Of a stretch of DNA of 64,000 bases, positions 5,228 to 25,722 are shown piece after piece. The DNA comes from Vulcanimicrobiota bacterium (GTDB lineage Bacteria > Vulcanimicrobiota > Vulcanimicrobiia > Eremiobacterales > Eremiobacteraceae), in NCBI GenBank assembly GCA_963805945.1, contig CAWDVP010000001.1:1-64000 (forward strand). The letters run 5' to 3'. Numbering within the stretch: position 1 is the first letter of the stretch; every line of letters starts with the position of its first letter. The notes under the pieces are model-generated. The model did no database searches, was not told the origin of the DNA, and worked only from the letters and a program-made list of their open reading frames with translations. A program made the position numbers and the translations under genes.

Positions 5228-6794
5228 GATGGTTCGCTTTCCAGCATCGGCACGTGGCTATGGCCGTGGGCGTGGTCGTGGCCGTGCGCATGCACGTGAC
5301 CGGGTGAGAACGCATAGCCCCCGATCGCGGCGAGCACCAATGCCGTCACAAGCGCCGCATTGGTATGCAGCGTCGAAGCGACGGCGCCTTGGCCGAGCAT
5401 GACCGCGCCGATCAGCGCGATGACGCTGGCGGAGACGAGCGGCCCGTATTGCACGAGCCTGTCGAAACTCGGCCGCTTCGAGAGCCACGACGCGCCGTGC
5501 ACGAGCGCGATGCCGAGACCGGTGAGCACGCCCGCGAGGCCGATGCTGAACGCGACGATGACGAGCAGCCCGTAGCCGAGCTGGTGGAGGGTCAGCGCGG
5601 TGAGCAGACACGACGAGCGCCGCCGGGCACGGCGCGATGTTGCCGCTCATGGCGACGAGCACGACGCTGCCGAACGACAGCGGCGCCGTGCCCGGCGGCA
5701 CGTGCTGGTGGCCGCCGGCGTGGACGTGCGCGGCGCCGCCATGAGATGCTCGTGATCGTGCGCGTGGTCCTCGCCGCGCCGCGTCTTGATGTAGCGCGAT
5801 AGCGCTTGCGCGCCGATCATCGCGACCAAGGCGCCCGAGGCGAGCGTGATCCACGGATAGATGTTCTCGGGGACGATCCATTGCGCGGCGGCGAGCATGA
5901 CGAGCCCGAGCGCGAGGACGCCGGCGGTGTGCGCGAACGTCAGCGCGGCCGCGAGAATGAACGCCTGCTTCGAAGTCGCGCGGGCGCCGACCAGCGACAC
6001 CGCGAGCAACGTCTTGCCGTGTCCTGGTTCGAGGGCGTGCAGCGCGCCGAGGCCGATCGCCATGACGAGGGTGAGCAGCACGAGCCACGGATTCGCCGCG
6101 CCTTTGGCGAGCATGTCGGAGAGCGCGTTGGAACGCACCTGCGAGGGCGCGGCTTGCGCAAGACCCGAGCTTCGCTCGGGCTTACAGAGCACGGTCGGTC
6201 CATGCCTGGTGCGCGAGGACGCGCCCGTCCGGCGCAAGGGTGCGGCGACCACGCTGACGTCGCGCGGGGAACTCAGCTCGCGCTTGGGTACGACCGCAGC
6301 TCGCGCGTGGGCTCGGTGTCGGGCGCGATGACGATGTCTTTCCAGCCGATGCGCCCGGGATAGGTGTCGTCCGCGATCGTAATCGGCGCGGCGCGCGCGA
6401 GCGAGGCAGGTCGGCATGGAATTGCTCGACCCAGTACAGCGTGGGCAAACCGCCGGCGCCGGGCCGGGTGGCGACGCTCGGCGCAGAAGCGCGCAGATCG
6501 AGCGCGCGGCCGTCGACCGCGACGGCGAGTCCCGCCTTGACGATGGCGATCTCGTCGGCCGCCCAGCGCGCCAGCAGCGCATCGCGCTGCGCACCGTCGA
6601 TACCGCGCTCGCGCATGATCTGAAACGTCGGGATCTCGGCGATGTCGAGCACGTAGATCAGATCGAGAGCGCTCGCCGCTTGTGCGCGCCTTGACGAGAT
6701 GGTTGATGGTGAAGTTGCCGAGCGGATGCGCGGCGGCCGGCGAGCCGACGCCCACGGCGAGCACCAGCGCGAGGCACAGGATCGCGTTTCTCAT
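5224..6794 (-). CDS. RcnA-like Ni/Co transporter with an N-terminal extracytoplasmic domain; frameshifted
   Basis: Signal peptide then AHPLGNFTINH; GALHALEPGHGKT, TFAHTAG, PCPAALVV; His-rich loop and His-rich C-tail HVHAHGHDHAHGHSH. Confidence 0.85.
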
Positions 6795-6841
6795 GCTAGG
6801 CTGATAACGGATCGGAGGGCGCGCACCGGATGGCCCGGGGC

Positions 6842-8742: not shown

Positions 8743-8778
8743 GGGCTGGACGGTTTCGACCCGCTTTCCGCGGCGGCC

Positions 8779-9330
8779 CTATGACTTGCTGATGGTCTCG
8801 AGGTTGGTTTTGAGGACCTCGGGCGTCATGAAGCCGCGATACATGACGCGGATGACGCCGGCCTTGTCGATGAAGACGCTTTCCGGCAGCGACTGGATCT
8901 CGTACGCCTCGGTGAGCGGGCCTGGATCCAGCACGACGAGATACGGGATCTTGAAGCGCCCGAGGAAGGGCTTGACGAGCTCAGCATCTTCTTGCGCGTC
9001 GACGCCGATGTAGACGACTTTATCCTTATACTGAGGATAGCTGGCGACGATGCCCGGGAGTTCTTGCTTGCACGGCGGGCACCAGGTCGCGAACGTGTTG
9101 ATGAACACCGGCTTGCCCTTGAACTGCGCGAGCGAGACCGCTTTTCCGTCCACGTCCTTGAGCGTGAACGGCGGCGCAGGTTCGCCCACCTTCGCCTTCG
9201 CCGCGCCGCCGGACCCGTTCGTGCTGGTCGCCTGTTTTCCGGCGCAGCCGCTGAAGACGACTACTGCCATGAGCAGCGCCATGCCGACCATCGTGGGCCG
9301 TATGGGATGTCCGTCTGCGTCGCGTGCCAT
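8779..9330 (-). CDS. TlpA/ResA-family thiol-disulfide oxidoreductase (probable lipoprotein)
   Basis: FATWCPPCKQELP; lipobox-like FSGC. Confidence 0.9.
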   Translation of the reverse strand: MARDADGHPIRPTMVGMALLMAVVVFSGCAGKQATSTNGSGGAAKAKVGEPAPPFTLKDVDGKAVSLAQFKGKPVFINTFATWCPPCKQELPGIVASYPQYKDKVVYIGVDAQEDAELVKPFLGRFKIPYLVVLDPGPLTEAYEIQSLPESVFIDKAGVIRVMYRGFMTPEVLKTNLETISKS

Positions 9331-9402
9331 GGCCGGTCGGGCTTCTGCGGGGTCGACACCGACTCTTGCCCCAGCGCAAGGAGGCACGCGGTCACGCGCG
9401 CT

Positions 9403-11309
9403 CTATGCGCCGGCGGCGGTGAGGATCAGATCCGTTCCAAGGCCTAGCATGAAGCCGAGGAACACGCCCACCGTGGCGAATTCTTTATAGCCGATGCGGC
9501 CTCCGGCCTTGGTCATCTCGCCGATGACGTAGATGATGGCGCCCGCCGCCAGCGTCAAGAACAGCACGGACAGCGTCGGGGAGACGAAATGATAGCCGAC
9601 GAGCGTGCCGAGAAAGGTCGGCGCGCCGCCGATCAGGCCGAGCCGGATGATGTCGCCGATACCGGCTCTCACGTCCGAGCCCGCGAGCGGCGCGGCGATG
9701 CCGAAGCCTTCGGTCATGTTGTGCAGGCCGAAGCCGATGATGAGCAACACGGCGAGCTGGATCGCACCGGTCGCCGCCGACTGGCCGATCGCCAGCCCCT
9801 CGCTGAAATTGTGCAGGCCGATGCCGAGCGCGATGGTCGTCGCGAGCGCCATGGGGCTGAGCATCCCGCCTTCTGCGACGGCGGCGCGCTGCTTGCTCAG
9901 CACGAGTTTCGAGAAGTAGACCAGGCCGACGAGCCCGACGCCCAGACCGACGACGTATACCGCGGTGAGCCATGCGAACGGTCCGACGCCGAAGCCCTGG
10001 CGCATCTTGTCGAGCGCGTCGACGATCGGCTCGCCGGCTTGGCGCAAGATATCGAAGAGCAGGAAGAACAGCACGCCGACCGCGATCGCGTTGAGGAACG
10101 CGAGCCAGTGCCGCGGCACGCGGCGCAACGCCGCGAACGGCAGGCCTAAGAAGATCGTGAAGCCGGCGATCGCGCCGAGGATGAGCGTCTGCATCTGCGA
10201 CATCTTCGGTCCGCTCTCGCCCGACGCGCTCGGCGGCGCCATCGCCATCGCGTCTTGGGACGCCATCAGCGCGAAGCGATCCGGCGCGCCTTCGTACTGC
10301 ACCGCGGAGACGAGCCCGCCCGGGCCGCGATCGCCGTTCATCATGTGATCGGCCACGTGGCAATGGAACATCCACGTGCCGGGTTGCGCGTCGGCGACGA
10401 ATTCGATGTCGCGCGTCTCGCCGGGTCCGAGCGTCACCGTGTCCATCATCTGCCGTGCCGCTGGCGCGACGGGTTGCCCGTCGACCGCGACGACCGCGAA
10501 ATGGTGGCCGTGGAGATGCATCGTGTGGAACTCGGTGCCGCTGATATCGATCTCGCGGACGCGGATGCGCTCGCCCTGCTTGACGACGAACGGCTTGCCG
10601 AGCGGATAGCTCTTGCCGTTGATGCTGAAATAGTTCTCGCTCGTGCTGTAGATCTTCCACGACGAGATGAGCATGAGATAGTCGCGCGCGGGGGCCGGCC
10701 CGGCCGGCGTGCGCGGCTCGACGACGACCGCGCCGTAGAGTCCGCGGTCGAGCTGGTTGAGATCGTCCACGTGCGTGTGGTAGATGTACGTGCCTGGCTG
10801 GCGGACGACGAACTGGTAGACGAAGCTTTGGCCCGGTGGCACCGGTCTGCTGGCTGAAGCCGGGCGTGCCGTCCATATCCGGCGGGCACGTTCATGCCGT
10901 GCCAATGGATGGTCGTCGGAGCCGGCAGATGGTTCGTGAACTCGACGCGCAACGTATCGCCTTGGCGCACGTGGATCGTCGGACCCGGCACCGTGCCGTT
11001 GTAGGTCCATGCGTCGGTGGTTATCCCTGGCGCAGGCGTCCAGCGTTTCACCTCCGCGATGAGGCGGATGGTCTTGACCGGACCCGGCGTGAGCGCCGGC
11101 AGTGACGGCAGCAGATCGTAGTCGCGCTGGGCATCGGCTTCCGCCTGCGTGACGACGTCGCGTGAGACGTCGGCGGCCACAGGACCAGGGGCGGCGGATG
11201 CGAGGTCGGCCGCACACACAGCACCCGTGCTGAGCGCGCCGAAACAGATCGCGGCAGCGGCGGCAAGGGCCGCCGGCAGCATTCGCCGGTCGAGCGAGCG
11301 AGCGGCCAT
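9403..11309 (-). CDS. Two-domain multicopper oxidase fused to a C-terminal ZIP-family metal transporter; frameshift near 10870
   Basis: Signal peptide; Cu motifs TIHWHG, YHTH, HTMHLHGH, WMFHCHVADH; continues in frame through a Met-rich linker into ZIP TMs with GLHNFSEG and GLHNMTEG. Confidence 0.8.
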
Positions 11310-12059
11310 CTATCGTGCTTTCGAAGCGGGCTTGCGCCGGATGCTTGACGAGGATCGCGCCGGCGAGCTGCGCGCTCACCGAGTGGGTCTTACCGTTGAC
11401 GCGCAGCGTCATGAATCCGATGCGCGCGCTCGACGCGCTCGACCGCGATCGTCGTGCCCGGCCGCAAGCCGATCTCCGCGAGATACTTGAGCAGCTCGGG
11501 CATGTCGTGCTTGATCTCGAGCACCTTTGCGCTTGCGCCCGCGGGCAGATCGACCAGCTCGACGGCGTCCTCGTGATTCCAGAGCGCACCGTCCTCGTGC
11601 GGGATGGGATGGCCGTGCGGACAGGTCGTAGGCTCGCCGGTGAAACGCGCGAGATGCCGTTCCACGAGCGGGGAGATGGCGTGCTCCAAGCGGCAGGCCT
11701 CTGCGTTGGCGAATTCCCACGGGATGCCGAGATGATCGACGAGCAGCCGCTCGGCGAGCCGTTGACGGCGCAGGGTGAGCGCGCCGATGCGCGCGCCGGC
11801 GGCCGTCGGGAACACGCCGTGACGTCCCTCGTGCGTGACATAGCCGTCGGCGTCGAGTTTCTTGAGCATGGCCGACGCGGAGGCGGCCGAGACCGCCAAG
11901 CTCCGCCGCGATGGCGGAGGTCGAGACGGGCTCGACCCCGTTGTGCAGCCGCACGATCGTCTTGAGGTACATCTCGACGTTCGGGCTGACCTCGGGTTCT
12001 TCCGAAGGCTCCAAGAGCGGGCTCTTGAGCGCTGAGTTGAGGGCGCGCTGAGTGCTCAT
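11310..12059 (-). CDS. DtxR/IdeR/MntR-family metal-dependent repressor with C-terminal FeoA/SH3-like domain; frameshifted
   Basis: EMYLKTI, VSAASASAMLKKL, RLAERLL..EACRLEHAIS, TCPHGHPIP, LKYLAEIGLRPG. Confidence 0.92.
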
Positions 12060-12073
12060 TTAGGCTCGCCTAA
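12060..12073. promoter_or_regulatory. Putative DtxR/MntR-family operator TTAGGCTCGCCTAA
   Basis: Inverted repeat TTAGG-N4-CCTAA directly abutting the repressor's ATG. Confidence 0.7.
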
Positions 12074-12220
12074 TTCGCTTCCTTAGGAGTGGTTATCCTG
12101 TGACCTCAAGGGCGCCTTATGACTCTCCTCGAGGCGTCCCGCTGCGAAATGGGTATAAGGGTGGTACGCAACGGCACAGGCTGACGGTACGTTACCTTAC
12201 TAAGGAGATTAGAAACACTT

Positions 12221-12694
12221 ATGAATCACACGAGAATCATCGCAGTCGCCATCATCGGAGCCCTGGTTTTGGCGTTCGCGCCGAAGCCCATGGCGCTCGC
12301 GGACGGTGCGGCGAGCACGCGGAACATCATCGGCGGCGCCGCCGCGATCGGAGCCACGCTGCTCATCATCAACCACAACAAGAAAGTGCACGAGAAGTAC
12401 GCGCAGGACGCGCAACAGCAGGCCGCGCTCGCCGAACAGCGCGACAACGCGCAGGCGGCCGCGCAGCAATACAAGATCGCCTACCAGCACGAGGCGATCG
12501 TCGTGTCCAATATGAAGCGCGAAGTCGCGCTGCAGGATCAAGAGATCAATAGTCTCAAGGCGCAGGTGGCCTCGGTCAACCCGGCTGGCTCGAACTTCGT
12601 CGCCGCCCGTCCGGCGGTGGCAGTGGTGCCTGCGACGAACTCGATGGCGCATGCACCGGTCCAAGTCGTATCCTACGGCTGGGGCATGTTTTGA
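12221..12694 (+). CDS. Hypothetical exported protein (signal peptide, Gly/Ala hydrophobic segment, coiled coil)
   Basis: Strong SD taaggag; MNHTRIIAVAIIGALVLAFA; Q/A-rich heptads; C-terminal YGWGMF. Confidence 0.8.
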   Translation: MNHTRIIAVAIIGALVLAFAPKPMALADGAASTRNIIGGAAAIGATLLIINHNKKVHEKYAQDAQQQAALAEQRDNAQAAAQQYKIAYQHEAIVVSNMKREVALQDQEINSLKAQVASVNPAGSNFVAARPAVAVVPATNSMAHAPVQVVSYGWGMF

Positions 12695-13062
12695 ACGTGC
12701 GCGCACGACTGCTGATCGCCTGCCTGCTGACCGCCGGCCTCGTCGCCTGCGGCCAGCATAGCGGGTCGAGCCCGCAAGACGTGGCCACCTCGGTGACGCA
12801 GGCGGTCTACAACAACGATCAGGCCGGTACGACACAGCACTTCGACGACGCGCTGAAGGCACAAGTGACGCGCACACAAGTCGCGATGATCTCGGATAAG
12901 ATGCACGAACTGGGCGATTTCCAGGGCCTTACCGAGACGAAGAGCGATGCAGACACGCGGCAGTATTGGTACGACGCCAAGTTCAGCAAGGGCGACATGG
13001 TCGTCGAGCTGAAGTTGCATGCAGACGGAACGGTGGCCGCGTACCGCGTCATTCCGAAGTAG
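12691..13062 (+). CDS. Small lipoprotein (DUF3887-like)
   Basis: Lipobox LVAC; 4-nt overlap with the upstream gene; followed by a terminator. Confidence 0.7.
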   Translation: MNVRARLLIACLLTAGLVACGQHSGSSPQDVATSVTQAVYNNDQAGTTQHFDDALKAQVTRTQVAMISDKMHELGDFQGLTETKSDADTRQYWYDAKFSKGDMVVELKLHADGTVAAYRVIPK

Positions 13063-13083
13063 CGTCGCGCAGACGCCGACGAG

Positions 13084-13118
13084 GAAGGGACGAGCGACGC
13101 TCGCCCCTTCTTCTTTTT
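13084..13118 (+). terminator. Intrinsic terminator
   Basis: GAAGGGACGAGCG-AC-GCTCGCCCCTTC stem followed by TTCTTTTT. Confidence 0.7.
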
Positions 13119-13153
13119 GCAATGCCGCCCGGCGTGAGGTCTCTCGCTCGGTC

Positions 13154-15148
13154 ATGCGTATCGTTCTCGCGGTTTCAGCCTTGGCGCTCGCGCTGCTCCC
13201 TGTTGCGGTCGCGGCGCGCACCATGCAGGTGAGCGATCTGCGGTGCCATCGTCGAGCGTGTCCGATCCGGATATCTCCCCGGACGGCGCGCAGATCGCGT
13301 TCGTCGTCTCGCGACCCGATTACGCGGCCAACGACACGGCGACCGAACTGGCGGTCGTCGACATCGCGAGCGGCGCGCAGCGCAGCCTCGTGCAAGGCCG
13401 GCGTGATCATCGCGTCGCCGCGCTGGTCGCCTGACGGCAAGAGCATCGCGTTCATCGCGACGGGCCGGCGAGCAGGATCAACTCATGCTGGTCGCCGCCG
13501 GCGGCGGCGCACCACATCCGATGACCGACGCGCGCAACGGCGTGACGCAGTTCGCGTGGTCGCCCGACGGCGCGACGATCGCGTTCGTCACCGCGGACGT
13601 CCCGAAGAACCAGGCGGCGATCGACCAGCACCATGATTCGTTCGAGGTGGGCAACGACAGCTACCTGACGACGGCAGCGCCGACGTCCGCGCACCTGTGG
13701 CTGGTTGCCGCGGCGCGGCGGCCCGGCGCGGCGCCTCACCTCCGGCGACTGGACCGTGACCGGCGGCGACTATGTCGCGCCGCTCTCGTGGTCGCCTGAT
13801 GGGCGCTACATCCTCATCTCCAAGTCGCCGAGCCCGCACCTCGGAGATTACAACGGCACGGTGCAGGCGCTCGTCGACACGCGCGACGGGCATGTGCGCC
13901 AGTTGACGCAGCACAGCGGCTATGAAGGCTATGGCGTCTTCTCGCCGGACGGCACGCAAGGTCGCCTACTGGTACCCCAAGGACGGCGATCCGCTCAACG
14001 GCTCGCAGATCTACGTCGCGCCGACACAAGGCGGCAACGGCAGCTGATGTCACGTCGCCGCTCGATCGCGATATCGCGCGCGCGATATGGATGCCCGACG
14101 GCGCGACGCTGCTCATCGGCGCCACCGATGGCACGCGCGTGTTCCTGTGGCTGCAGCCGCTCGACGGGCCCGCGCGCAAGCTCGACCTCGGCGAGATCAA
14201 CCCGTCGTGGAGCAACTGGGTCGACGTCACCGTCGGCCGCAACGGGTCGATCGCGTTCAGCGGCGCCGAGCCCAAACGGCCGACCGAGCTGTACTACCTG
14301 AGCTCGCCGACCGCCAAGGTGCGCCGCCTCACCGACTTCAATCACGACATCGCGGCGCTCGAGCTCGGGACGACGGAGACGATCTCGTGGCGTACGGCCG
14401 ACGGGATGACGGCAGACGGCGTGCTCACCTATCCGCCGGACTATGTGAAAGGCAAGCGCTATCCGCTGCTGGTGCGGCATCCACGGCGGCCCCAACCTCA
14501 CCTCGACGACCGAGTTCTACGATTTCGCGCAGGTCATGGCGGCGCACGGCTACCTCGTGTTCCGACCCGAATTACCGCGGCAGCGACAACCTCGGCAACG
14601 CCTACGAGCACGCGATCTTCAACGATGCGGGCGAAGGGCCGGCGCAGCGACATCGTGGGCGGCATCCAGGTCGTCCAAGCGATGGGCGTCATCGATGACT
14701 CGAAGATCGCGGTGGGCGGGCTCTCGTACGGCGGCTTCATGACGGCCTGGCTGGTCGGGCATTATTCCATCTTCAAAGCGGACGTCATGGCGGGCGCCGC
14801 AGCTCGACGCGCTGGAGCAATACGATCTCGGCGATTACAATGTGGCGGAGTGGTACTACTTCAAGGGCTCGCCGTGGGTGCGACCGGAGCACATGGACGC
14901 GTATCGCGCGCAGTCGCCGATCACGCTACGCGAGCCAGATCAAGACGCCGACGCTCATCGTCTCGAACGCCGGCGACGAGCGCGTGCCGATCTCCCAATC
15001 ATACGCGATGTTCCATGCGCTGCGCGACAACAGCGTGCCGGTGAAGTTCGTGGTGTTCCCCGGGGAGACGCATGAGATCGAAGGCCCGGTGCACATCGAG
15101 GACTACTTCCAGCTGTGGCTGGACTGGCTGGGCACTTACCTCAAGTAA
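13154..15148 (+). CDS. S9-family (prolyl oligopeptidase/acylaminoacyl peptidase) secreted serine peptidase; many frameshifts
   Basis: Signal peptide; WSPDG propeller repeats; HGGP, NYRGS, GLSYGG nucleophile motif, DERVP, FPGETH. Confidence 0.88.
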
Positions 15149-16138
15149 CCGACGACCTCGTCGAGCCAGCGCCTCTTCTGCTCGTCCGGGGCAAAGGACG
15201 CGACGAAGCCGTTGCGCGCCAGCTGCGCGAGCAGCTCGCGCGAGAAACCGCGCTCGCCGAGCGCCGCGTATTCGTCGAGCAGCGAGACGCCGAAGAAGCC
15301 CGGGTCGTCCGAGCTGAGCGTGACGAGCAGCCCTTCGTTGAGGAAGTCGTTGAGCGGGTGGCGTCTCCGGGCGCCTGACGGCGCCGGTGACAAGATTGCT
15401 CGTCGGGCACGCGTCGATCGCGATGCCGCGCGCGCGCAGCATCTCCATCACCGAGCGCTCCTGCCGCGCGCTGACGCCGTGGCCGATGCGCTCCGCGTCG
15501 AGCAGCTCGACCGCATCGGTGATGCTGCCCGGCCCGGCCGCCTCGCCCGCGTGGACGGTGCGTCGCAAACCCAGCTCGCGCGCCTTGCCGAACGCGCCGC
15601 GGAAATCGCGCGCGGGGAAGTTCCGCTCGTCGCCGCCGAGCCCGACGCCGATGACGTCGTACGCGCGGCAGCGCTGCGCCAGCGCGATATCTTCGTATGC
15701 CTCCGCCTCGCCGAGATTGCGCACCATGTCGAACAGCACGAGCGACGAGATGCCGGATTCCCGCTGCGCGTTCGTGCGCGCGTCGTGGATCGCGCGTACG
15801 GTGGCTTCGAGGTCGAGATCGGGGACGAACTTGCGCTGGGTCGCGGGCGACATGAAGAATTCGACGTGACGGACGCCGTTGCGCGCCGAGGCGCTGAGGT
15901 ACTCGTAGGCCAGCTCCGCGAAATCGGCCGGCTGGCGCAGCGCGCGCACGACCCGCAAGAACGCGCGCAGGAACGAGTCGAAGTCATGGCACGCGAAGAG
16001 CTTGGCGGCGTCGTCGCCGACCTCGATGTTGTTGCGCCGCGCGATGCGCGCGTAGCTCTCGAGCGTGATGGTGCCTTCGAGGTGGACATGGAGCTCGGGC
16101 TTGGGCAGTCCGCGGATCCACTCGCGCGACTCGCTCAC
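15136..16138 (-). CDS. add: Adenosine/adenine deaminase; frameshift near 15370
   Basis: LPKPELHVHLEGT, TVHAGE, AERIGHG, CPTSN, SSDDP. Confidence 0.92.
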
Positions 16139-16964
16139 TTGCTCCTGAACGATCGCAGATAGCCGAGGGTCTGGCGGTCGATGCAGCCGTCGTCGCGCAC
16201 GCGGTTCTCGAGGTTCTCGCGATGCATGAACTCGACCAGCGTCGGAGAGCCGGCCTTCGCTATGAGCGACGCGATCTCGCGGCTGAGCGCGTCGTCAATC
16301 TTTATGAGGTCCTCCGGCGCCGCCTTGAAATTGTACAGCTTGTGGAGCTCGAGCAGGCGCGCGAGCTCCTCGATCGGGTTCGGGATGGTCGTCAACGCGG
16401 AGATCGACGTAGCGGTCGTTGAAGCCGCCATAGCCGCCGTCCGGCTTGGCGATGTAGAGCGCCGCGCTCTGTTTGCCGCGCCGGTCGCCGCCGGCCGCTT
16501 GGCCGGCGCGCAAGCGCTGCGACGAGCCGATCGGCGAGATGTCCGCGCGACGTCGTGAATGTTTCGACCATCGAGTCGACGACTGCGGCAGCGGCGAGGA
16601 TGTTCCCCTGCGCTGCGTAGTTGACGCCGTGTCTGCCGCCTGCCCAGTCCATGCACTTCGATCCGGTGTATGTCGCAGACCGGCCGTGCGCGTCGACGAT
16701 TCCGACCTGGCGTTCGTCGGCGTGCTCGTCGTCGCCGACAAGGTCGCGGATCACTTCCTCGGGCGCTTTGCCGAGCCGCAGCATCTCGAGGCCGCGCGGA
16801 CCGTAGTTCGTGTTCGCCCACGCCTGCGTCGCGATCGCGCCGACACCACCCTCGACCCATGGCACTGCCGAGCCGACGGAAAGGAACTTCGACTGCACCG
16901 CGACGCCGAGTTCGTTCGCGTCGGGATCGCGGCCGACTATGGAAAAAGTCGATGGCACGGGCAT
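16135..16964 (-). CDS. DUF1028 (Ntn-hydrolase-like) protein; frameshifted
   Basis: [53 protein letters not shown]. Confidence 0.9.
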
Positions 16965-17004
16965 GCGGGGCAGGTACGCTTTGCGCACCCGTGGTACCTA
17001 TGCG

Positions 17005-17078
<74 letters not shown>

Positions 17079-17180: not shown

Positions 17181-17519
17181 CTAATGCTTGACGAAAAGAT
17201 CGAAGAACGGCGGGAAAGTCCCGAGGATGCCGATCAGCAAGAGGGCTAGCGCAACGGGTGCCACGCGCCGGAAATCAGTCTCCTTGTCCTTGAAGATGAA
17301 ATAGAGCACGATCCAAGATACGAACAGGGCGATCACCGCGACACCCGTCACGCCCGTTAGGGTGCCGGCCGGGTTCCACCAGTTGAGAGCGTTTCCTACG
17401 GACGCAACCGATTCGGCAAGGATGGTTATCACGCCGAGCACCGCAGCGCCGATACCACCGGCTAAAAGTGCCGCCGCAACTGGTCCGTTCGGGCGACCTG
17501 CCTGAGTGTTCTGTGTCAT
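17181..17519 (-). CDS. Hypothetical 3-TM membrane protein
   Basis: 112 aa; hydrophobic; NWWNPAGTLTG and GTFPPFF; SD ggggga. Confidence 0.75.
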   Translation of the reverse strand: MTQNTQAGRPNGPVAAALLAGGIGAAVLGVITILAESVASVGNALNWWNPAGTLTGVTGVAVIALFVSWIVLYFIFKDKETDFRRVAPVALALLLIGILGTFPPFFDLFVKH

Positions 17520-17534: not shown

Positions 17535-18068
17535 TCAGCGAATGGGTGCGACTTTGTTCAGCAACGCCCCGAACAAGCCGGCTGAGGCGGCTGCAACGAA
17601 TGAAACGACGAAGAAGACAGTAATCGCCTTGCGTTCTCCTACTCGCTGGGAAAGCGCCGGTCCGTAGTAGCTCACCGCGAACGCCACTACAGTGGCGGCA
17701 ATCGGCGCAAGCCAGCCGACGTGCTCTTTCCACTCCATTCCGAAGCTGTGCCAACCTTGGGTGCTAGAAGCGGACAGTAACAGCGAACGCGGATAGTGCG
17801 TGAGATCAGTCGTGCCCGCGGCAGGCGTAGCCCGGTACCACGGGTAGATGATGTACGTTCCCGTGATCACGGTGCCCCAAGCGATGAGCGCCATCGCCCA
17901 GAGGCCGATGCTCATCTGCAATGTCTCCTTTGCGGCGCCGACGAGCGTGAGCCACTGGACTCGACAATCGTACAACCCCGCGAGACCGGCCGAAAACGCA
18001 AGCAGGTACGCCGCCCCGAAAACCATCCCATGCAGCAACGTCCAGCTCTCATTCGCTGTTAGTGACAT
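17535..18068 (-). CDS. Hypothetical 4-TM membrane protein with His motifs
   Basis: SD GGAGG before ATG 18068; LLHGM, YIIYPWYRA, WHSFGMEWKEH. Confidence 0.78.
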   Translation of the reverse strand: MSLTANESWTLLHGMVFGAAYLLAFSAGLAGLYDCRVQWLTLVGAAKETLQMSIGLWAMALIAWGTVITGTYIIYPWYRATPAAGTTDLTHYPRSLLLSASSTQGWHSFGMEWKEHVGWLAPIAATVVAFAVSYYGPALSQRVGERKAITVFFVVSFVAAASAGLFGALLNKVAPIR

Positions 18069-18257
18069 GCGCAAAAACCTCCGGCTACATGGCGGTGCTG
18101 GGAGAGCAAGAATGTTCATAATCCTGGAAGGCGTACCCTTCCATGCGGCTGGTAGCCCAATCCAGCAGCAGGACATTCCACTGCGTCGCGATCGCCCGAA
18201 CTGCGCGGATCCTAGGGTCGAAGCCGAAGAGCGTCACCGGTCCGGCGCGCTCATGGG

Positions 18258-19661
18258 TTAGTGTTTCTGCGCCGCTTTCGAGAACCTATGGATAAGATGA
18301 GTGATTCCTTCTTGCCCTCGAGTGATGACCTCGTTCACCAATACTCCGGCCAGCGGAATGACGCTGTCAACCCAAACCCCCGCATTGAACGCGACAAGTC
18401 CCAGGGTCAAAGTCGCGATCGAGATGCCCGCGACGACGATGATCAAGGCGTACGCGGGCGCGACGAGCTCGAACACAAGGCTTATTATCAATATCAGCCC
18501 TATTTCAAGCGCATAGTGCGCGGGCACGCTCGGCTCCCTAAGCACATCGCCTTGCTCGAGTGAATTCACCTCATTGATCAAGACCATGGTTCCGGGCATT
18601 TCGCCGATCGGAGTGCGATGCAGGTCTAGCGGGTCCCAGCTCGAGCCGATCACGACGATCCGATCCTGGAGGGCCGAGCCGTCGACTGGGGCGCCTTGGG
18701 TGATCGGCTCGGCGCGCAAGACTGCGCCCAGCGCAGGCCCAGGGCTCGCCTCGCTCTGACCATCCCATGGAATACGATACACAATGCGCCGCTGCAAACC
18801 GCGCTCCGTCAGGAGTATCGAATGCGGCGGATTTCCGATTCCAATCAACTCGTTTTCGAAAGACCGATTCGGTTGCGGCGTTTGACCGCTCTTTCGCCCG
18901 CATGCCGACCGGTGTTGTTGCAGAGCGCCGCGAATATCTGCGAGCGATTTTCGTTGTTCCGCGACCGCGAGCAGCGCGACGGAAGGAGTCAGAACTCCCT
19001 CGCCCTCAGCCGTGCAAGAATTCTCCCACAAGCGCCAACGGCGCGCCACGTGGTCCGGATCGTGATCCGTCGTGACCGCTCCCCATTGAACGTGACCCGC
19101 GATCTTCCACGGCTCTTCGGGCGACGTGCCCAGCGCTTGGTCAAGGAAAGACCGTCGAGCGACGTTGGCGGGCCCCGCCTGCCCGGGATATGCATTTTCA
19201 ACCCCGTCATCGAACGGACGCACGAGCACGATCGGCGGAGCGCAGGCACCCGAACACCGGCTGTATTTTTTCAGAACACGCACGAGCGCGTCGTCAAATC
19301 GGCTCGAAGTCGAAAAATCGACGTCGACGATCACCGCTCGCGGTTCGTGCTGCATGGCGAAATCGAGAAGTACAGCGAGCTTGTCGCGCCGCGTGATGAG
19401 CGGTTCGCCCCAATTCCGGTACGTTTCCGTATCGACGTTGATCCAGGCGATGTCTTGCCCGCCGTCGACGCCTTTGAGTTTATCCATTTGCCAGTTGATG
19501 ACACCATCTTGGAGCGTGGCGACCGTGGCATTCTTCTGTATGACCGGCATGTCAAGAATAAGCGTCAACACGAGACCGATGACCACATTTATCGCGAAAT
19601 GCCGTGGGAACCGCGCCCACCGCGTGCCGGCCGGCGAGGTCAAGGCACTTTTCTCCGGCAT
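18258..19661 (-). CDS. CHASE2-domain membrane protein with no cytoplasmic output domain
   Basis: N-terminal TM; IAWINVD..TYRNWG, RDKLAVLL, PRAVIVDVDF, DPDHVARR, RIVVIGS..DLHRTPIGEMPG; three C-terminal TMs then a ~20-aa tail. Confidence 0.82.
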   Translation of the reverse strand: MPEKSALTSPAGTRWARFPRHFAINVVIGLVLTLILDMPVIQKNATVATLQDGVINWQMDKLKGVDGGQDIAWINVDTETYRNWGEPLITRRDKLAVLLDFAMQHEPRAVIVDVDFSTSSRFDDALVRVLKKYSRCSGACAPPIVLVRPFDDGVENAYPGQAGPANVARRSFLDQALGTSPEEPWKIAGHVQWGAVTTDHDPDHVARRWRLWENSCTAEGEGVLTPSVALLAVAEQRKSLADIRGALQQHRSACGRKSGQTPQPNRSFENELIGIGNPPHSILLTERGLQRRIVYRIPWDGQSEASPGPALGAVLRAEPITQGAPVDGSALQDRIVVIGSSWDPLDLHRTPIGEMPGTMVLINEVNSLEQGDVLREPSVPAHYALEIGLILIISLVFELVAPAYALIIVVAGISIATLTLGLVAFNAGVWVDSVIPLAGVLVNEVITRGQEGITHLIHRFSKAAQKH

Positions 19662-19861
19662 GCGGACGAGAGGGCAAAGCACCGGACCGGAGGAGTCGCC
19701 ATAACAGACACTCCCGAATGGAAGACGCCCGACAACACTCAAGCATTGGCCGACCGCACCAGGTCTCCTCGCCCTGGAATCATTCGACGTAGCCGGCTAG
19801 GGCCTCCACCCTCGGTCGTTCGAGAGGATACCCCGGCAAGCGAGTTCAATATGCGCGCGTC

Positions 19862-20734
19862 ATGCGTTTCAATGCGCGCGTCATTGTCCTTTTCCTCTCC
19901 GCTTTCAGTGTGGTCGCGTCGTCGATGCCCAGCGTCGCGGATGACGCAGCAGGTCCCGCGCCGACTTCGACTCCCGTCGATCAAACATCATTCTACGGGA
20001 TGACCCCACGCTCATACGAACAGATCCCCTTTCCCGACTTCGGTTTTTTCATAGGCTTCGACGGCAAGCGGACGCTCAGCGATTTCCCGCCACCGCCCAC
20101 GTTCATGCCGATGTGTTCGGTCTCTGGGATCAGCGCGCCGGGCAGCCTCCTCAAAGGCGTGACCGACCTCAAGGGAACCGACTTGGAGGTCAGCAGCGAC
20201 GTGCGGATCGCCTATCGTGATCTCGACGATCTGCTCTATCGGCTGCGCGCGTGCGATTATTATTTGTCCATCTACGCATGGAACACGCGGCAAAACGCGC
20301 ATAGCCAGATATTCAACTACTCCTGGCAGACCGGCTGCAATTCATTTGAAAACGAGCGCACGGCCACGAAGCTCTCCAGCGCCGCGCTTCCGCTGCTCAC
20401 GGGCAAGATGAGCAACGAGCAGCGTAAGGAAGCGCTCGCTAAGTTCCTCTTGGATGACTACGACCAGTATGCCGACCTTTTCGAACGCGTCGATTCCTGC
20501 TCCAACATCCTTGCCAATCTGACGTACGGTCCGAACAGGCATCGCTTCTTCTGCAACTACGGCGGCATCATGGGCGCTCTTCTGACCGGAAGCGCAGTCG
20601 CGTTCGGAAAGCACTGGGGCGGCTCGACAAGCTCGACACAAGCCCAGGTGCAGGCCCTTGGCACGGTGGCGCTCGCGTTGCCGGGGTTGTGTCAAAACGG
20701 AACCCCTGGTAGCGCCAAGGGAGGCGGAGGCTAG
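19862..20734 (+). CDS. Hypothetical secreted protein
   Basis: Signal peptide MRFNARVIVLFLSAFSVVASS; 290-aa uninterrupted ORF with several Cys; two hydrophobic C-terminal segments. Confidence 0.72.
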   Translation: MRFNARVIVLFLSAFSVVASSMPSVADDAAGPAPTSTPVDQTSFYGMTPRSYEQIPFPDFGFFIGFDGKRTLSDFPPPPTFMPMCSVSGISAPGSLLKGVTDLKGTDLEVSSDVRIAYRDLDDLLYRLRACDYYLSIYAWNTRQNAHSQIFNYSWQTGCNSFENERTATKLSSAALPLLTGKMSNEQRKEALAKFLLDDYDQYADLFERVDSCSNILANLTYGPNRHRFFCNYGGIMGALLTGSAVAFGKHWGGSTSSTQAQVQALGTVALALPGLCQNGTPGSAKGGGG

Positions 20735-21687
20735 TCCGTCGCTTCGATCAGGAGATATCGCAACGGCTGCACGTTAGGATACGAATCGGGAACCGTCGCG
20801 AGCTGCTGGTATGCCGCAAGATTCCATTCGTGGTGCGGGCCTTTCTTCGCCAGCATTCCCGCTGAGAGCGGAACGCTCAGACTCCCGGGAAGATGCTTGA
20901 GTTGATCGCGTTCGTCTTCTGAGAGTTGGGGTATCGCGCTATCGGAGACGATATCGAAATTTCCCGTCGCCTTTGCGCCCGAACTGTCTTCGACTTCCAC
21001 CTGATATGTGCCGGGCATCAGGCCTGAATCAAAGCGCGCCTCATTGATCGGGATGTTGAGTTTCTCCGCAACGGGCTTGTCCGCTCCGCCGAGGAAGAGC
21101 CGAACGTGAAAGGGAGCGCGTCCGCCCAACCAAGGAATCGTGAGAGCACCGCTCTGCAAGGAAGCGCCCGCGCGCGGAGTCGTATGCAGCAGGGGCATCG
21201 ACGGCGCTGGCGGTGGGCCGCGCGAGGTCATCTGATCGACTTTGCTGCTATAGTAGTCTTCCTGCGCGGCTGCGAAGAGCGGTGCGACCGACGCCAATAT
21301 GTTCTTCAAGACCGTGCTGACCGTGCCCACAGGTCCCGCGCCTTGAACGGGGTGCGACCCGCAGATACCATCGCTTGCCCCGACACAGTACGGGCGATCA
21401 CCGTTAACGGTATGCAGGCTTCCCTCGATGGACAGCATGATCGTCATCTTCGTGCCGACCTTATCCGACGGAACGACAACGCTCACTCGATCGCCCGATT
21501 GAAGCAGTGCGAGCGGCGCTATATTGACGGACTGGCCGGATCGGCTGATGCGATAGGCGGATGCTGGTCCGTTATAGCTGGACACATACGATATGCCCGG
21601 TTGCGCCGTATCTGCTGTCACCGCGAGAGGAACGCTCGCGACGATCGCGATTGGCACAAGCAGGCAAACGAGACTGCGAACAAGCAT
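20731..21687 (-). CDS. Hypothetical secreted protein, DUF928-like C-terminal half
   Basis: SD GGAGG; signal peptide; beta-rich middle (LTIPW..FHVRL..LMPGTYQVEV); helical end AGMLAKKG..WNLAAYQQL. Confidence 0.7.
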   Translation of the reverse strand: MLVRSLVCLLVPIAIVASVPLAVTADTAQPGISYVSSYNGPASAYRISRSGQSVNIAPLALLQSGDRVSVVVPSDKVGTKMTIMLSIEGSLHTVNGDRPYCVGASDGICGSHPVQGAGPVGTVSTVLKNILASVAPLFAAAQEDYYSSKVDQMTSRGPPPAPSMPLLHTTPRAGASLQSGALTIPWLGGRAPFHVRLFLGGADKPVAEKLNIPINEARFDSGLMPGTYQVEVEDSSGAKATGNFDIVSDSAIPQLSEDERDQLKHLPGSLSVPLSAGMLAKKGPHHEWNLAAYQQLATVPDSYPNVQPLRYLLIEATD

Positions 21688-21771
21688 ACCTTGGTCCTCC
21701 GACGTCAGCGGTTCTATGCGTTGATTACGGGAGCCTGTCCTGGGTGCCAAACCTCTCGGGAGGTCTTTGGA

Positions 21772-24700
21772 ATGCTCCGCGGCATCGTCCTTGCATCGAG
21801 CATTGCCCTCTTCGGCGTTTCGTCCATCGCCGACCTCGCGAATCTGCCCCCAGCGATTGAGCGCGTGGCGATCGACGACAGCGCGAGCGCTCTTCCGAAC
21901 GTACCGGGCGCTTACCATCTGCTGCTCTTCGATGCTGATCGAGTGCAGATGGATCCAAGCGCGGAATCGATCCTACGTGAGTACGATGCTCACCTGACGC
22001 AACAGCTCTACACGCTGTTCCCTGGAGCGAGTTTCACTCGGGCCACGCTGACCGACACCAATCCAGCCACCATCGCGCAGGCATGCGCTGATCACCACGC
22101 CGTTGGCGTTGTCTTCACCGCCGAGGACTGGCCTGGCCGGGTGGGCGGACCGGCCGGCATCGATTCGGCAGCCGTTGGGGTCGCCATTTACGATTGCTAC
22201 GGAGAAGACGAGTACAGCTGGAACGAGTCCAGCCAAGCGAAGCCATCAAGCGGGGACCGTAGCCCCAACGGGCAGCAGCTCATCAACACGCTCGATGACC
22301 TCAGCGATCACGTCGTCGCGAAGATCAGCGACCTGGCCGCAACGCCCAGTCCCACGCGACTTGGCAATCTTCTTAGGTACGGCTACTCGATAGGCACTGG
22401 AGAACGTCGCACTTACTTCGGCCTCGGGCCCGACCCCGCGGGGGCGCGGGTCACCTACGCGTTCGCATTCGGAAGCGCCGCGCGCGCAGGCCTCAAACTC
22501 GGAGATCTCGTCATCTCGATCAATGGCCGCGCCACTATGGGACTTTCGCAAGATCAGCTAAATAGCGCGCTGGTGAGCTTGGGCTCACCCCCGAACACAT
22601 ACGCGCTGGAAGTGCGATCGGCAGACGGCTCAAGGACGACCATCCGCTTCGAGGCACACGACCTGCAGTGGTACCTGACCCACGCCGGAGTCGTCGCCGC
22701 GTCAGCCTCTCCCACGCCCTCACTCGGACAGAGCGACCCGACCGCCGACCGACTGGAGGCGCTCATCCTGGCAGGCGACACTGCGGATTCGAAGGGAGAT
22801 CCAAAGAGCGCGCTTTCAAGGTACCAGGAAGCGCTTGTTCTGGCGCGCCAGGTCGGGAGCCGTGGATACGAGGCCCGGGCTCTCGGCGGCATCGGCGGGG
22901 CGGACATCAACATGGGACTGTATCCAGATGCGCTGAGCAACCTCCAGCAAGCGCTGCCGATCGCCCGGCAGCTCGGCATGCGCGACGCTGAAGCTGCGAT
23001 ACTGGCCGACATCGGACTCGTCTTCTTCAGCACCGGGCGCTACGACGATGCACTCGCCAATGCGCAGCAAGCGCTCACGCTCGACAAGCAGCTCAACAGA
23101 TCGGACAATGAGGTGAGGGCTCTGAGCAACGTCGCGGACATCGAAGACCTCATGGGCCGCTTTGACGACTCCTTGGAAGCCTCGAAGGAAGGGTTGGCTA
23201 TCGCGACGCAGCTGCAGGACGTCCATGGGCAGGCTGCCGCACGTGCGGCCATGGGCAACGTCATGGCGGCGTTGAGCCGCTTCCCGGAAGCTCTCACCCT
23301 CTATCGCGCGGCGCTTGACGATTATCGCGCGTTGAAGGACCCCCGGGGACAGGCTAGGATGCTCGGCAACATCGGGGTCCTACAGGCGTTGGTCGGACAG
23401 TACTCGGATGCGCTTGAATCGCAGGAAGAGGCCATCGCGCTCGCCCGGCAGGCGAGCGACCCACAAACCCAAGCCAAAGCGTTGAACGATATCGCGAACG
23501 TGCAGGCTGAGCTCGGACTGCCTTCGGCTGCCTTGCGATCAAATGGCGAAGCGCTTGAGATCCAACGCAAGATCGGGAACCCGCTCCGTATCGCCACCAG
23601 TCTCACGACTCGAGGCTTCATCGAAAAGGATCTCGCCACGTATGGTGACGCGGAGTCGACTTTTCGTGAGGCGCTCGCCATCTCAACGCAACTTGGGGAC
23701 CAGATCGAGGCGGGATACGTCCTCAACGGACTCGGGGCGGTGCAAGCCGCCCGGGGGCAGTACGCGGCGGCCCTGGCATCCTATCAGAGCGCGCTTGCCA
23801 TCGCGGTACAATCCGGCGACCGCGAAGGGGAGGCGACGCTTTCATGGACCTCGGCCGACGTGCAGCAGCGATTGGGCCTTTTTCGCGACGCCCTTGCGAG
23901 CGCACAGCGCTCTATCGCCCTTCATCGCGCGACTGGATCGCCGGCTTGGCATGGCCTGAGCGCAGCGGCGCACGCGCAAGCCTCTCTCGACGATCCTCCG
24001 GGCGCTATCTCGAACTACGGAGCCGCGATCGATGAGATCGAGCGATTGCGCGGCGCGCTGCCGGAGACGGACAGCCGCACGTCATTCTTTGAACAGGCAT
24101 TGTTCGTGTACGATGATTACATCGCATACTTGCTCGACTTGGATCGACGCTTTCCGGGCACAGGCTACGATCGCAAGGCGTTCGAGATCTTCGAGCGTCG
24201 ACAGGCGCGCACGCTGCTCGACGAGATCTCGCAAAGCGCCGTGCACGGCTTCTCGGGTGTCCCTAGTGCGGTCAGCGATAAGGAGAGTACGATCGCCATA
24301 GAGATCGCGCAGCTGGTGACGAGACTCGCGCGCGCGCGCTCAACCAGTCGCACCACCGCGGCGACGATCGCGTCGTTGGAAGCAGAACTGGGCGCCGTTG
24401 AACAGCAGCGCGATGCGCTCGAAGCAGACATACGTTCCCGCTACCCCGCATATTACGCGCTGCGGCATCCGCGCCCGGTCGACGTTCCGACGTTGCAACG
24501 CGTGCTGCGGCCGGGAGAGGCGATGCTCGTCTACGACGTGCTCAGGACCCGCACCGCATTATGGATCATCACGCCCAGCGCGTTCCAGCTCTTCGAATTG
24601 GAGGGAGGCGCTCAAGACGCTCAAAGCAAGGTCACGCACTACTTGAGCGCCACCCGGTCCGTGCAATCGGCTATAGACACCGGCATCAGCGCAGCCGCGG

Positions 24701-25722
24701 TGCGCCGTCTGGCTGCGCAGACGCTACCCTCCTTTGTGGAGTCGAGTTCGGCGCTCTATCAATGGCTGTTCCCCATCGGTGCCCGCTCGATGATCGCAGC
24801 ATCGACCAGCTTGTACGTCGTGCCGACCGCTGCGCTCTATGACAGCCCATTCGAGGCACTCGCGACGACCGCACCTGGGGAAAGCATCCGATATCTTGTC
24901 GAGGACCATTCGGTCTCATACCTGTCGTCCGCGTCGCTGCTCGCTGTGCTTCGCGCCGGCCTTGAAAAGCGGCGCCAAAGCGAACAGCAGCCCCTCGTGG
25001 CGTTTGCAAACCCGAAATTCGACGAAGGGGTCGCTTCAGGGCCAAGCGCTGCGCCGACTCTTGCGGCGCTGCAGACAAGCGCCGTGTCTCGCATCATCTC
25101 GCGCGGGGCTCAAACATCGGTGTTTCCAGCGCTACCCGGGAGCAAGATCGAGGCGCAGAGCGTGGCCGCGACCATTCAAGGCTCGCCGACGGACATCTAT
25201 CTAGGCGATGAGGCTTCGGTCGCGACCGTCCGACGGTTGAACGCAAACGGGAGCCTTGCGAATTTTCGTTACGTGCTGTTCGCCACGCACGCCGCCTTGC
25301 CCGACACGATCAGCGGCATCGCGCAGCCTTCGCTCGTGCTCGCGCACCCGACGGCGGGTGGGCTATTGACGATGGGCGATGTCTTCGGTCTGTCGCTCAA
25401 CGCCCAGCTCGTGATGCTATCAGCGTGCGAGAGCGGTGGCGGGATAACGACCAAGGGCGAGGGAGTGCAGGGACTGACCCAGGCGTTCATGTACGCCGGA
25501 ACGCCGGTCGTCTCGGTGACGCAATGGGAGGTCGTCGACGACGTTGCGGAGCGGTTCACCCCGGACTTCTTCCTCCGCATGCATAGAAATGCGACGCCCG
25601 CACAAGCGTTGCGCGAGGCAAAGCTCACGATGATCCACGGTTCCGATGCCATGCTTCGACATCCGTTCTTTTGGGCGCCCACGGTCCTCTTCGGCGACGG
25701 GGCCTTTGCGTCGAGCCAGTGA
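21772..25722 (+). CDS. Exported PDZ-TPR-CHAT (caspase-like, HetF-type) protease
   Basis: SD GGGAGGT before ATG 21772; hydrophobic N-terminus; PDZ (GSAARAGLKLGDLVISING); ~40-aa TPR array; CHAT motifs LFATHA (His 25288), VMLSACESG (Cys 25426), GLTQAFMYAG, HPFFWAP. Confidence 0.9.
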   Translation: MLRGIVLASSIALFGVSSIADLANLPPAIERVAIDDSASALPNVPGAYHLLLFDADRVQMDPSAESILREYDAHLTQQLYTLFPGASFTRATLTDTNPATIAQACADHHAVGVVFTAEDWPGRVGGPAGIDSAAVGVAIYDCYGEDEYSWNESSQAKPSSGDRSPNGQQLINTLDDLSDHVVAKISDLAATPSPTRLGNLLRYGYSIGTGERRTYFGLGPDPAGARVTYAFAFGSAARAGLKLGDLVISINGRATMGLSQDQLNSALVSLGSPPNTYALEVRSADGSRTTIRFEAHDLQWYLTHAGVVAASASPTPSLGQSDPTADRLEALILAGDTADSKGDPKSALSRYQEALVLARQVGSRGYEARALGGIGGADINMGLYPDALSNLQQALPIARQLGMRDAEAAILADIGLVFFSTGRYDDALANAQQALTLDKQLNRSDNEVRALSNVADIEDLMGRFDDSLEASKEGLAIATQLQDVHGQAAARAAMGNVMAALSRFPEALTLYRAALDDYRALKDPRGQARMLGNIGVLQALVGQYSDALESQEEAIALARQASDPQTQAKALNDIANVQAELGLPSAALRSNGEALEIQRKIGNPLRIATSLTTRGFIEKDLATYGDAESTFREALAISTQLGDQIEAGYVLNGLGAVQAARGQYAAALASYQSALAIAVQSGDREGEATLSWTSADVQQRLGLFRDALASAQRSIALHRATGSPAWHGLSAAAHAQASLDDPPGAISNYGAAIDEIERLRGALPETDSRTSFFEQALFVYDDYIAYLLDLDRRFPGTGYDRKAFEIFERRQARTLLDEISQSAVHGFSGVPSAVSDKESTIAIEIAQLVTRLARARSTSRTTAATIASLEAELGAVEQQRDALEADIRSRYPAYYALRHPRPVDVPTLQRVLRPGEAMLVYDVLRTRTALWIITPSAFQLFELEGGAQDAQSKVTHYLSATRSVQSAIDTGISAAAVRRLAAQTLPSFVESSSALYQWLFPIGARSMIAASTSLYVVPTAALYDSPFEALATTAPGESIRYLVEDHSVSYLSSASLLAVLRAGLEKRRQSEQQPLVAFANPKFDEGVASGPSAAPTLAALQTSAVSRIISRGAQTSVFPALPGSKIEAQSVAATIQGSPTDIYLGDEASVATVRRLNANGSLANFRYVLFATHAALPDTISGIAQPSLVLAHPTAGGLLTMGDVFGLSLNAQLVMLSACESGGGITTKGEGVQGLTQAFMYAGTPVVSVTQWEVVDDVAERFTPDFFLRMHRNATPAQALREAKLTMIHGSDAMLRHPFFWAPTVLFGDGAFASSQ

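Follow-up and report, generated by a model that had tools for sequence, protein, structure and literature searches.

The 64,000-nucleotide stretch analyzed here (the window; contig CAWDVP010000001.1 of assembly GCA_963805945.1, Vulcanimicrobiota bacterium) carries at 18258-25722 a block of four long, intact open reading frames (ORFs), which we label A to D and which follow each other in the order A(-) B(+) C(-) D(+). A is a CHASE2 membrane protein without an output domain, B a predicted secreted, cysteine-rich orphan, C a predicted secreted protein of an unnamed family, and D a predicted exported protein in which a probable PDZ domain is combined with TPR and CHAT domains (Table 1). A and B form one divergent pair with a spacer of 200 bp, C and D form a second one with a spacer of 84 bp, and B and C converge with a 4-bp overlap. 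The four genes very probably form one functional unit, and our tentative reading, which we regard as quite possible and which rests on analogy with studied systems, is that of an envelope sensor-protease module, in which the pair of CHASE2 protein and MtxA-like neighbor C would control the exported PDZ-TPR-CHAT protease D.

Long chance ORFs are common at the guanine plus cytosine (G+C) content of the window (65.6%). We regard A to D as real genes rather than chance ORFs because each of them has homologs and a low ratio of nonsynonymous to synonymous substitutions (dN/dS) when compared with its ortholog in L001, a contig from a metagenome-assembled genome (MAG) of Candidatus Eremiobacteraeota. 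The dN/dS values are 0.225 for A, 0.154 for B, 0.222 for C and 0.224 for D, with amino-acid identities of 70-76% across all four genes, and by this measure all four genes are under purifying selection and have diverged to a similar extent. In case of A, the ATG at 19661 (MPEKS...) is the most likely start, rather than the start at 19742 that gives an ORF of 494 amino acids (aa). According to hydropathy, the products of all four genes begin with a hydrophobic N-terminal segment.

Table 1. Genes, domains and intergenic regions of the four-gene block (positions in the window)
Feature	Position	Strand	Size or basis
Gene A, CHASE2 membrane protein	18258-19661	-	467 aa
CHASE2 domain of A, predicted periplasmic	about nt 18483-19520	-	Pfam
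A/B intergenic region, presumed promoters of both genes	19662-19861	.	gene coordinates
Gene B, predicted secreted Cys-rich orphan	19862-20734	+	290 aa
Gene C, predicted secreted protein, unnamed family	20731-21687	-	318 aa
C/D intergenic region	21688-21771	.	gene coordinates, 84 bp
Gene D, PDZ-TPR-CHAT	21772-25722	+	1316 aa, ATG at 21772
Probable PDZ domain of D	22378-22590	+	about residues 203-273
TPR array of D	22741-24111	+	about residues 324-780
CHAT domain of D	24739-25698	+	residues 990-1309, Pfam

D matches the Pfam CHAT family (PF12770) with an E-value of 6.5e-57 and 193.6 bits at a cut-off of 24, covering profile positions 2-289 of 289. The predicted catalytic dyad consists of His1173 (25288-25290) and Cys1219 (25426-25428, in the motif SACESG), and both residues are kept in all six CHAT domains that were aligned, which come from the window, from L001 and from two plasmid loci described below, L005 and L006. 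D is thus predicted to be a CHAT cysteine protease with an intact His/Cys dyad. The TPR array lies N-terminal to the CHAT domain in the same chain, which is the layout of separase, Craspase and DdvA. It is matched by Pfam TPR_12 in four stretches (E 7.1e-42), by TPR_MalT at residues 324-476 and by NCBIfam TPR models up to residue 780, and its matches in the PDB are TPR domains of the LGN/Pins type, with E-values down to 6e-28. The Pfam PDZ_6/PDZ match at residues 232-272 stays below the cut-off of 27 (24.8 bits, E 1.9e-5), the PDZ_6 match of the L001 ortholog lies above it (29.2 bits), and the PDZ matches of D in the PDB, about 100 weak ones at E<=1, include DegP and scribble (E 7e-4 to 3e-3). 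Residues 1-23 form a signal-peptide-like segment that is kept in L001. In PADLOC-DB 2.0, only generic TPR models match D, and A, B and C match nothing.

This domain combination could also belong to a periplasmic protease for proteostasis or cell-wall remodeling, with A and C serving as membrane tether and adaptor. In the Prc-NlpI pair, a PDZ protease is guided by a TPR adaptor, and D, predicted to be one exported protein with PDZ, TPR and protease domain, would unite both in one chain. The PDZ matches of D are closest to domains of periplasmic proteases (DegP, CtpA/Prc-like) as well as to eukaryotic ones, all four genes show plain purifying selection with no fast-evolving member, and there are no defense genes nearby, which would all be in line with such a housekeeping role. 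The presence of a CHASE2 sensor and the patchy, island-like spread of the genes (with other flanks in L001 and on a plasmid in Azospirillum), however, fit a regulated accessory module better, and none of the genes in the block belongs to a known class of substrates, e.g. the peptidoglycan hydrolases. We therefore consider a proteostasis or remodeling protease to be somewhat unlikely.

CHASE2 is a common bacterial sensor domain for which, to our knowledge, no ligand has become known since its description. A matches Pfam CHASE2 (PF05226) with E 1.3e-20 and 74.5 bits at a cut-off of 26.3, over profile positions 19-254 of 257, and no other Pfam or NCBIfam family was matched. Its hydropathy profile contains an N-terminal segment (residues 19-43) and a block of ~54 residues (379-432) that has room for about three helices, and this agrees with the topology of CHASE2 receptors, in which one transmembrane segment precedes the domain and several follow it. 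The usual cytoplasmic output domain on the CHASE2 chain is found neither in A nor in its counterparts in L001, in L005 and in P0108, a 790-aa protein from the representative protein library. As CHASE2 is the sole match and the tail after the last hydrophobic segment comprises ~20 residues, A is a CHASE2 receptor without an output domain. A shares 72% identity with its L001 ortholog and 32% with the CHASE2 part of P0108, and it contains invariant Cys residues. A distant kinship between CHASE2 and the CHAT/caspase fold, with CHASE2 as the inactive member, was considered and rejected (hhalign probability 0.2%, with both alignments shallow).

Could A signal inward by another route? It might act via its transmembrane helices on an unlinked kinase or cyclase, and D would then merely mature or degrade a ligand-presenting C. 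Most CHASE2 domains described in the relevant parts of PMC3501461, PMC5192318 and PMC4439547 are indeed same-chain inputs of cyclases, kinases or caspase-type domains, and a CHAT-like domain that probably lies on the cytoplasmic side of a CHASE2 chain in L006 would agree with such a direction. Against this stand the output-less CHASE2 proteins in all four contexts (window, L001, L005 and P0108) and the fact that no signaling gene is conserved beside the block, so that we judge inward signaling to be distinctly unlikely. The original prediction had already remarked that no kinase, cyclase or transcription factor is attached to these genes, and none is found in A or in the 17 ORFs that were examined in its flanks (9.4 to 35.2 kb).

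B starts with a signal-peptide-like segment, which is followed by a variable Pro/Ala linker and a helical core, and toward the C-terminus it has two hydrophobic, Gly-rich helices and finally a Gly-rich tail; its invariant cysteines are C85, C131, C159, C213, C231 and C277. It has 13 homologs besides itself, one of which is labeled as coming from a Vulcanimicrobiaceae bacterium. The AlphaFold2 model is all-helical and of low confidence, with a mean pLDDT (predicted local distance difference test score) of 56. No Pfam family matches B at E-values up to 10, no NCBIfam or PADLOC model does, and its fold finds no PDB entry in Foldseek at E<=0.001 and no match in the Atlas; the earlier label "orphan" is kept. 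Other parts of the original prediction are likewise borne out: profile hidden Markov models (HMMs) confirm CHASE2 in A and CHAT in D, where the cysteine codon named at 25426 is that of Cys1219, the coordinates and order of four intact genes in two divergent pairs hold, and the signal peptide or transmembrane anchor that had been assigned to every product finds its counterpart in the hydrophobic N-terminal segments.

In the AlphaFold2 model of C (pLDDT 74.7, predicted template modeling score 0.72), the signal peptide is followed by a beta domain at the N-terminal end, then by a long helix, an immunoglobulin (Ig)-like beta-sandwich and a four-helix domain at the C-terminus; the protein contains invariant Cys residues. 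There are 12 non-self close homologs, and a profile built from them matches 1006 representative clusters at E<=1e-3, including giant proteins with Ig repeats. Our family statistics rest on the best 150 of these 1006 representatives: 114 of them have no more than 351 aa, 102 are 250-351 aa long, and 90 of these 102 start with a hydrophobic segment. The other 36 of the best 150 include the CHASE2 fusion P0108 and three scanned giants, P0043, P0051 and P0059, which are Ig/PKD/SprB repeat proteins; a search for further fusions among the longer family members gave six matches, all of them again Ig/PKD/SprB repeat proteins. Judged from these profiles, C belongs to a large, unnamed family of secreted proteins.

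No Pfam family matches C at E<=10, and no NCBIfam family does so at E-values up to 0.1; PADLOC gave no match either. The original prediction had called the product of 20731-21687 "DUF928-like" and had itself named a lack of DUF928 similarity as an outcome that would count against it. This label has to be given up, as neither C nor any of 112 short family members (of 114) matches DUF928 (PF06051) at E<=0.01 or E<=0.1. FecR (PF04773) was rejected as well, with no match for C or its family members, and when 48 members of the family were scanned at E<=10, neither DUF928 nor FecR nor MtxA appeared among the 25 families listed of 39. A comparison by hhalign of the C-family profile with a DUF928-like protein from Tolypothrix (L006) resulted in a probability of 0.6%, which is a weak test because the one DUF928-like protein compared is itself sub-threshold.

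A protein from the literature that C resembles is MtxA. With the model of C, Foldseek retrieves Ig/FN3 domains, and the MtxA C-terminal domain appears at rank 14 (4z29_B, E 1.3e-3, probability 0.99); in the Atlas, a cluster with MtxA Pfam families comes at rank 20 with a score of 0.83, which is a lead only. As described in the parts of PMC4439547 that concern it, MtxA (MGR_0208) of Magnetospirillum gryphiswaldense has ~313 aa, starts with a signal peptide and continues with a beta region and an Ig-like domain to a helical, TPR-like end, and in magnetotactic bacteria mtxA is followed by a conserved gene for a CHASE2 adenylate cyclase. C is of similar size (318 versus about 313 aa), agrees in its modeled domain layout and is likewise encoded beside a CHASE2 gene. 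The differences are that no sequence homology was detected, that the CHASE2 partner has no cyclase in our case, and that a CHAT protease belongs to the set. The resemblance of C to MtxA thus concerns the layout, the gene context and, weakly, the fold. As the deletion of mtxA had no phenotype under standard conditions in the experiments covered by these parts of PMC4439547, MtxA offers no function that could be transferred to C.

The coherence of the block is evident from its recurrence. In L001, all four genes are found again, arranged as in the window; the nucleotide similarity to the window is confined to 18292-25722, a translated comparison of the flanks yields noise only, and the L001 flanks, with a 5'-3' exonuclease and an amine oxidase, are unrelated to those of the window, which include a methyltransferase and membrane proteins. 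The block had been predicted to behave as one unit, and its preservation between unrelated flanks agrees with this. Indirectly, the same is suggested by 5 of the 12 non-self close C homologs, which share the size of their largest contig with a B homolog (2404, 3752, 6688, 1921045 and 191011). A tblastn search of plasmids with A led to a single record, plasmid pAB510a of Azospirillum sp. B510 (L005), where a 466-aa protein, a 787-aa CHAT protein, an output-less CHASE2 protein and a 306-aa C-family protein are encoded in a co-directional row. The CHAT protein of this row (Pfam E 1.2e-60) has a lipoprotein-type signal with the lipobox LTAC, the CHASE2 protein (Pfam E 8.1e-11) has no output domain, and the C-family protein is assigned to the family with an hhalign probability of 99% (E 5e-18) and an hmmsearch E-value of 4.8e-20.

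In P0108, a CHASE2 protein of the subfamily of A is joined to a C-family protein that is complete and has kept its signal-peptide-like segment. As this internal segment would form a fifth membrane pass and leave the C part outside, the join is topologically possible. Altogether, an output-less CHASE2 protein is adjacent or fused to a C-family protein in four of four visible contexts (window, L001, L005, P0108), and a CHAT gene is adjacent in all three C-family contexts with visible flanks. Going by these gene neighborhoods, CHASE2, C-family and CHAT genes travel together in two phyla as a conserved trio, and B lies outside this core as a lineage-specific accessory. In Azospirillum, co-occurrence is seen for the trio, but not for B. 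Might the four genes simply be neighbors that share no function? They do not form a single operon, being arranged as two divergent pairs with a convergent overlap, which is what unrelated neighbors could look like; however, the block is preserved although its flanks differ, the trio is found again in Azospirillum, and P0108 joins CHASE2 to a C-family protein, so that this explanation is already disfavored and appears highly improbable.

A second, cyanobacterial flavor of the CHASE2/CHAT association is represented by L006, a cluster at 996-16420 of the Tolypothrix sp. PCC 7712 plasmid NZ_CP063789.1. Its genes encode a hypothetical protein of 466 aa, a DUF1822 protein, a fusion of CHAT and CHASE2 with 814 aa, three TPR-CHAT proteins, a secreted protein that is DUF928-like, and a DUF6932 protein. 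The secreted DUF928-like protein has 240 aa, and its DUF928 match is sub-threshold (E 0.0011, 19.2 bits at a cut-off of 26). As in our block, the genes of a membrane protein with CHASE2, of TPR-CHAT proteins (at least one of the three with a signal-peptide-like start) and of a small secreted protein are neighbors. In contrast to A, the CHASE2 protein of L006 carries a CHAT-like domain that is N-terminal to CHASE2 and ahead of the first hydrophobic segment, hence probably on the cytoplasmic side, and it is not matched by the HMM of the A subfamily; also, the small DUF928-like protein is unrelated to C by hhalign (0.6%, as above). The link of CHAT, CHASE2 and DUF928 genes in cyanobacteria, which the original prediction mentioned, thus exists in this one example, with its sub-threshold DUF928 match, and is accompanied by a passage in PMC5587647 on neighboring CHASE2 and DUF928 genes in Nostoc punctiforme, but it does not extend to C, which is not a DUF928 protein. 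Cyanobacteria also have metacaspase-CHASE2 fusion proteins, e.g. in Trichodesmium (PMC3501461, PMC2853523), which similarly link a caspase-fold protease to a CHASE2 sensor. In these, the protease is a C14 metacaspase in the same chain and on the cytoplasmic side, whereas here it is a separate CHAT protein that is predicted to be on the outer side, like the sensor domain.

How could such a module function? In the envelope sensor-protease reading, all parts would meet outside the cytoplasm. The original prediction had placed them there, and this fits the signal-peptide-like N-termini, the lipobox of the L005 CHAT protein and the invariant cysteines in A, B and C. C would dock on the periplasmic CHASE2 domain of A; it is a plausible CHASE2 partner because the genes of secreted proteins of the MtxA type and the FecR type, too, are neighbors of CHASE2 cyclase and kinase genes. 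In the Burkholderiales operons treated in PMC5192318, as far as its pertinent passages go, secreted LysM-FecR proteins are encoded beside CHASE2 histidine kinases. The likeness lies in the gene of a secreted, beta-rich protein beside that of a CHASE2 receptor, with both sensory parts in the periplasm; the difference is that C has no FecR or LysM match, and that the CHASE2 protein of our block comes with neither a kinase nor a response regulator. As A seems unable to signal inward, its output would have to occur on the side where the sensor domain lies. The pair of A and C may recruit D or gate it allosterically, via the TPR and/or the PDZ part, and D, once activated, would cut a dedicated target in the envelope. 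The best candidate for such a target or effector in Eremiobacterota would be B, a Cys-rich, predicted secreted, helical protein whose C-terminal hairpin is hydrophobic, with A or C as alternatives. The module may serve in envelope stress, in surface remodeling or in conflict.

The gating step has precedents in other TPR-CHAT proteases, among them Craspase, separase and DdvA, which stay inactive as long as no partner or signal has brought the catalytic dyad into line. The closest studied protease is DdvA, which is likewise an extracytoplasmic TPR-CHAT protein with a His/Cys dyad. The sections of PMC11506125 devoted to DdvA present it as an anti-sigma factor with a periplasmic TPR-CHAT part and a resting dyad, for which activation by a periplasmic signal and cutting of a nearby linker are proposed. 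DdvA differs in being membrane-anchored and tied to an extracytoplasmic function (ECF) sigma factor via a cytoplasmic zinc domain (same sections), whereas D is predicted to be soluble and exported, has a probable PDZ domain, and has no sigma or anti-sigma partner nearby. Among the PDB sequence matches of D, DdvA was not found.

Several observations weigh against this reading. Homology of C to MtxA at the sequence level was not detected: the C-family profile does not match 4z29 in the PDB at E<=10, and the Pfam models of MtxA (MtxA_IG-like PF22433, MtxA_C PF22121, and DUF7354 PF24045) match none of the 112 short C-family members. The fold match of C with 4z29_B is modest, with a template modeling score of 0.35 by target length and a root-mean-square deviation of 6.6 over 140 columns. 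Signal peptides and topology were judged from hydropathy only. The co-occurrence rests on four visible contexts, one of which, P0108, may be no true fusion but the result of reading through from one gene into its neighbor. A genome scan for related loci resulted in one locus (L001) from 56 pattern matches, and a tblastn search of plasmids with the C-family members P0001, P0108 and P0069 found nothing; the Azospirillum C-family and CHASE2 proteins as queries gave only self-matches. Nine further plasmid loci were fetched with a CHAT query (L002-L004 and L006-L011), and a CHASE2 gene is annotated in only one of them, L006, with L009 and L010 being unannotated; the HMM of the A-type CHASE2 subfamily matches in none of the nine, and the loci other than L006 (L002-L004 and L007-L011) contain no C, B or A-subfamily gene. 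Finally, no B homolog was found in the Azospirillum operon, and B as a substrate therefore cannot be the general mechanism.

The block might also be a conflict system, directed against phages or other bacteria, a possibility that the original prediction had named. In such a system, envelope sensing of an invader or competitor would activate the CHAT protease and thereby release a membrane-damaging fragment of B or of another effector. CHAT-activated gasdermins and Craspase-Csx30 would be the analogs, and CHAT proteases generally act as effectors or activators in several defense systems. DdvA regulates a defense island according to the portion of PMC11506125 concerned with it. The G+C content of the block is 61.6% versus 66.2% in the surroundings within the window, so that it ranks with the lowest 5 when 114 windows of 7.5 kb are compared; the Azospirillum block (4932-11265) has 61.2% versus 67.9%. 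Together with the unrelated flanks of the block in two relatives and the hydrophobic Gly-rich C-terminal helices of B, this would be compatible with a conflict system. In L001, however, the block is not lower in G+C than its flanks (62.0% versus 60.6%). There are also no defense, mobile-element or integrase genes in the flanks examined (window and L001), no integrase in any ORF scanned, and no direct repeats that flank the block. PADLOC recognizes generic TPR parts of D only, B is missing from the Azospirillum version, and dN/dS values of 0.15-0.23 show no sign of an arms race. A conflict system therefore appears unlikely.

No published description of this gene set was found in a search that left subscription journals mostly outside. 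The parts are each of known kinds, and what is new is their combination and the absence of a cytoplasmic output. Most of what is known about CHAT proteases comes from systems of the cytoplasm. Output-less CHASE2 proteins, MtxA-like partners and exported TPR-CHAT proteases may possibly represent a widespread, undescribed type of signaling that takes place wholly outside the cytoplasm, a generalization that we regard with considerable doubt. In such signaling, CHASE2 would recognize another protein instead of a small molecule, and a caspase-like cut in the envelope would release or activate an effector, e.g. B in Eremiobacterota. If this is true, the CHASE2 domain gains a first testable partner and output. 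With CHASE2 and CHAT both predicted outside the cytoplasm and accompanied by a dedicated secreted protein, the set is small and concrete enough for studies of binding and cleavage, and genetics is feasible, as Azospirillum sp. B510 is a culturable carrier of the core trio. A link of the C family, which has no Pfam name, to MtxA and CHASE2 would annotate many hypothetical proteins.

In the Azospirillum row, the first gene (4932-6332) encodes the 466-aa protein, which is predicted to be secreted, ends with YRF, has no Pfam match and may be an outer-membrane barrel. The row is followed on the opposite strand by a gene with a methyl-accepting chemotaxis protein (MCP) signaling domain (11313-13172).

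In the window, a scan with the sigma-70 consensus, which may not suit this phylum, found no site in the A/B spacer, and a scan for promoters and terminators gave nothing beyond the shuffled expectation. The 17 flanking ORFs mentioned above encode ordinary enzymes and transporters, and the stretch of low G+C content extends beyond the block to about 30 kb. A tRNA-Met gene is located at 17005-17078 (+), 1.2 kb from the end of gene A, and between the two lie small membrane-protein ORFs at 17181-17519 and 17535-18176, which have no Pfam match and are not kept beside the block in L001. At 9403-11841 (-), an 812-aa ORF contains three multicopper-oxidase domains, and its C-terminal stretch matches a ZIP zinc transporter weakly (27.1 bits, below the cut-off of 35.1). 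A DUF1028 gene at 16135-16988 (-) is apparently split by a frameshift: the ORF 16392-16988 matches positions 1-148 of 193 of the DUF1028 profile (E 2.9e-57), and PG_binding_2, the expected end of a DUF1028 protein, is encoded in another frame at 16135-16500.

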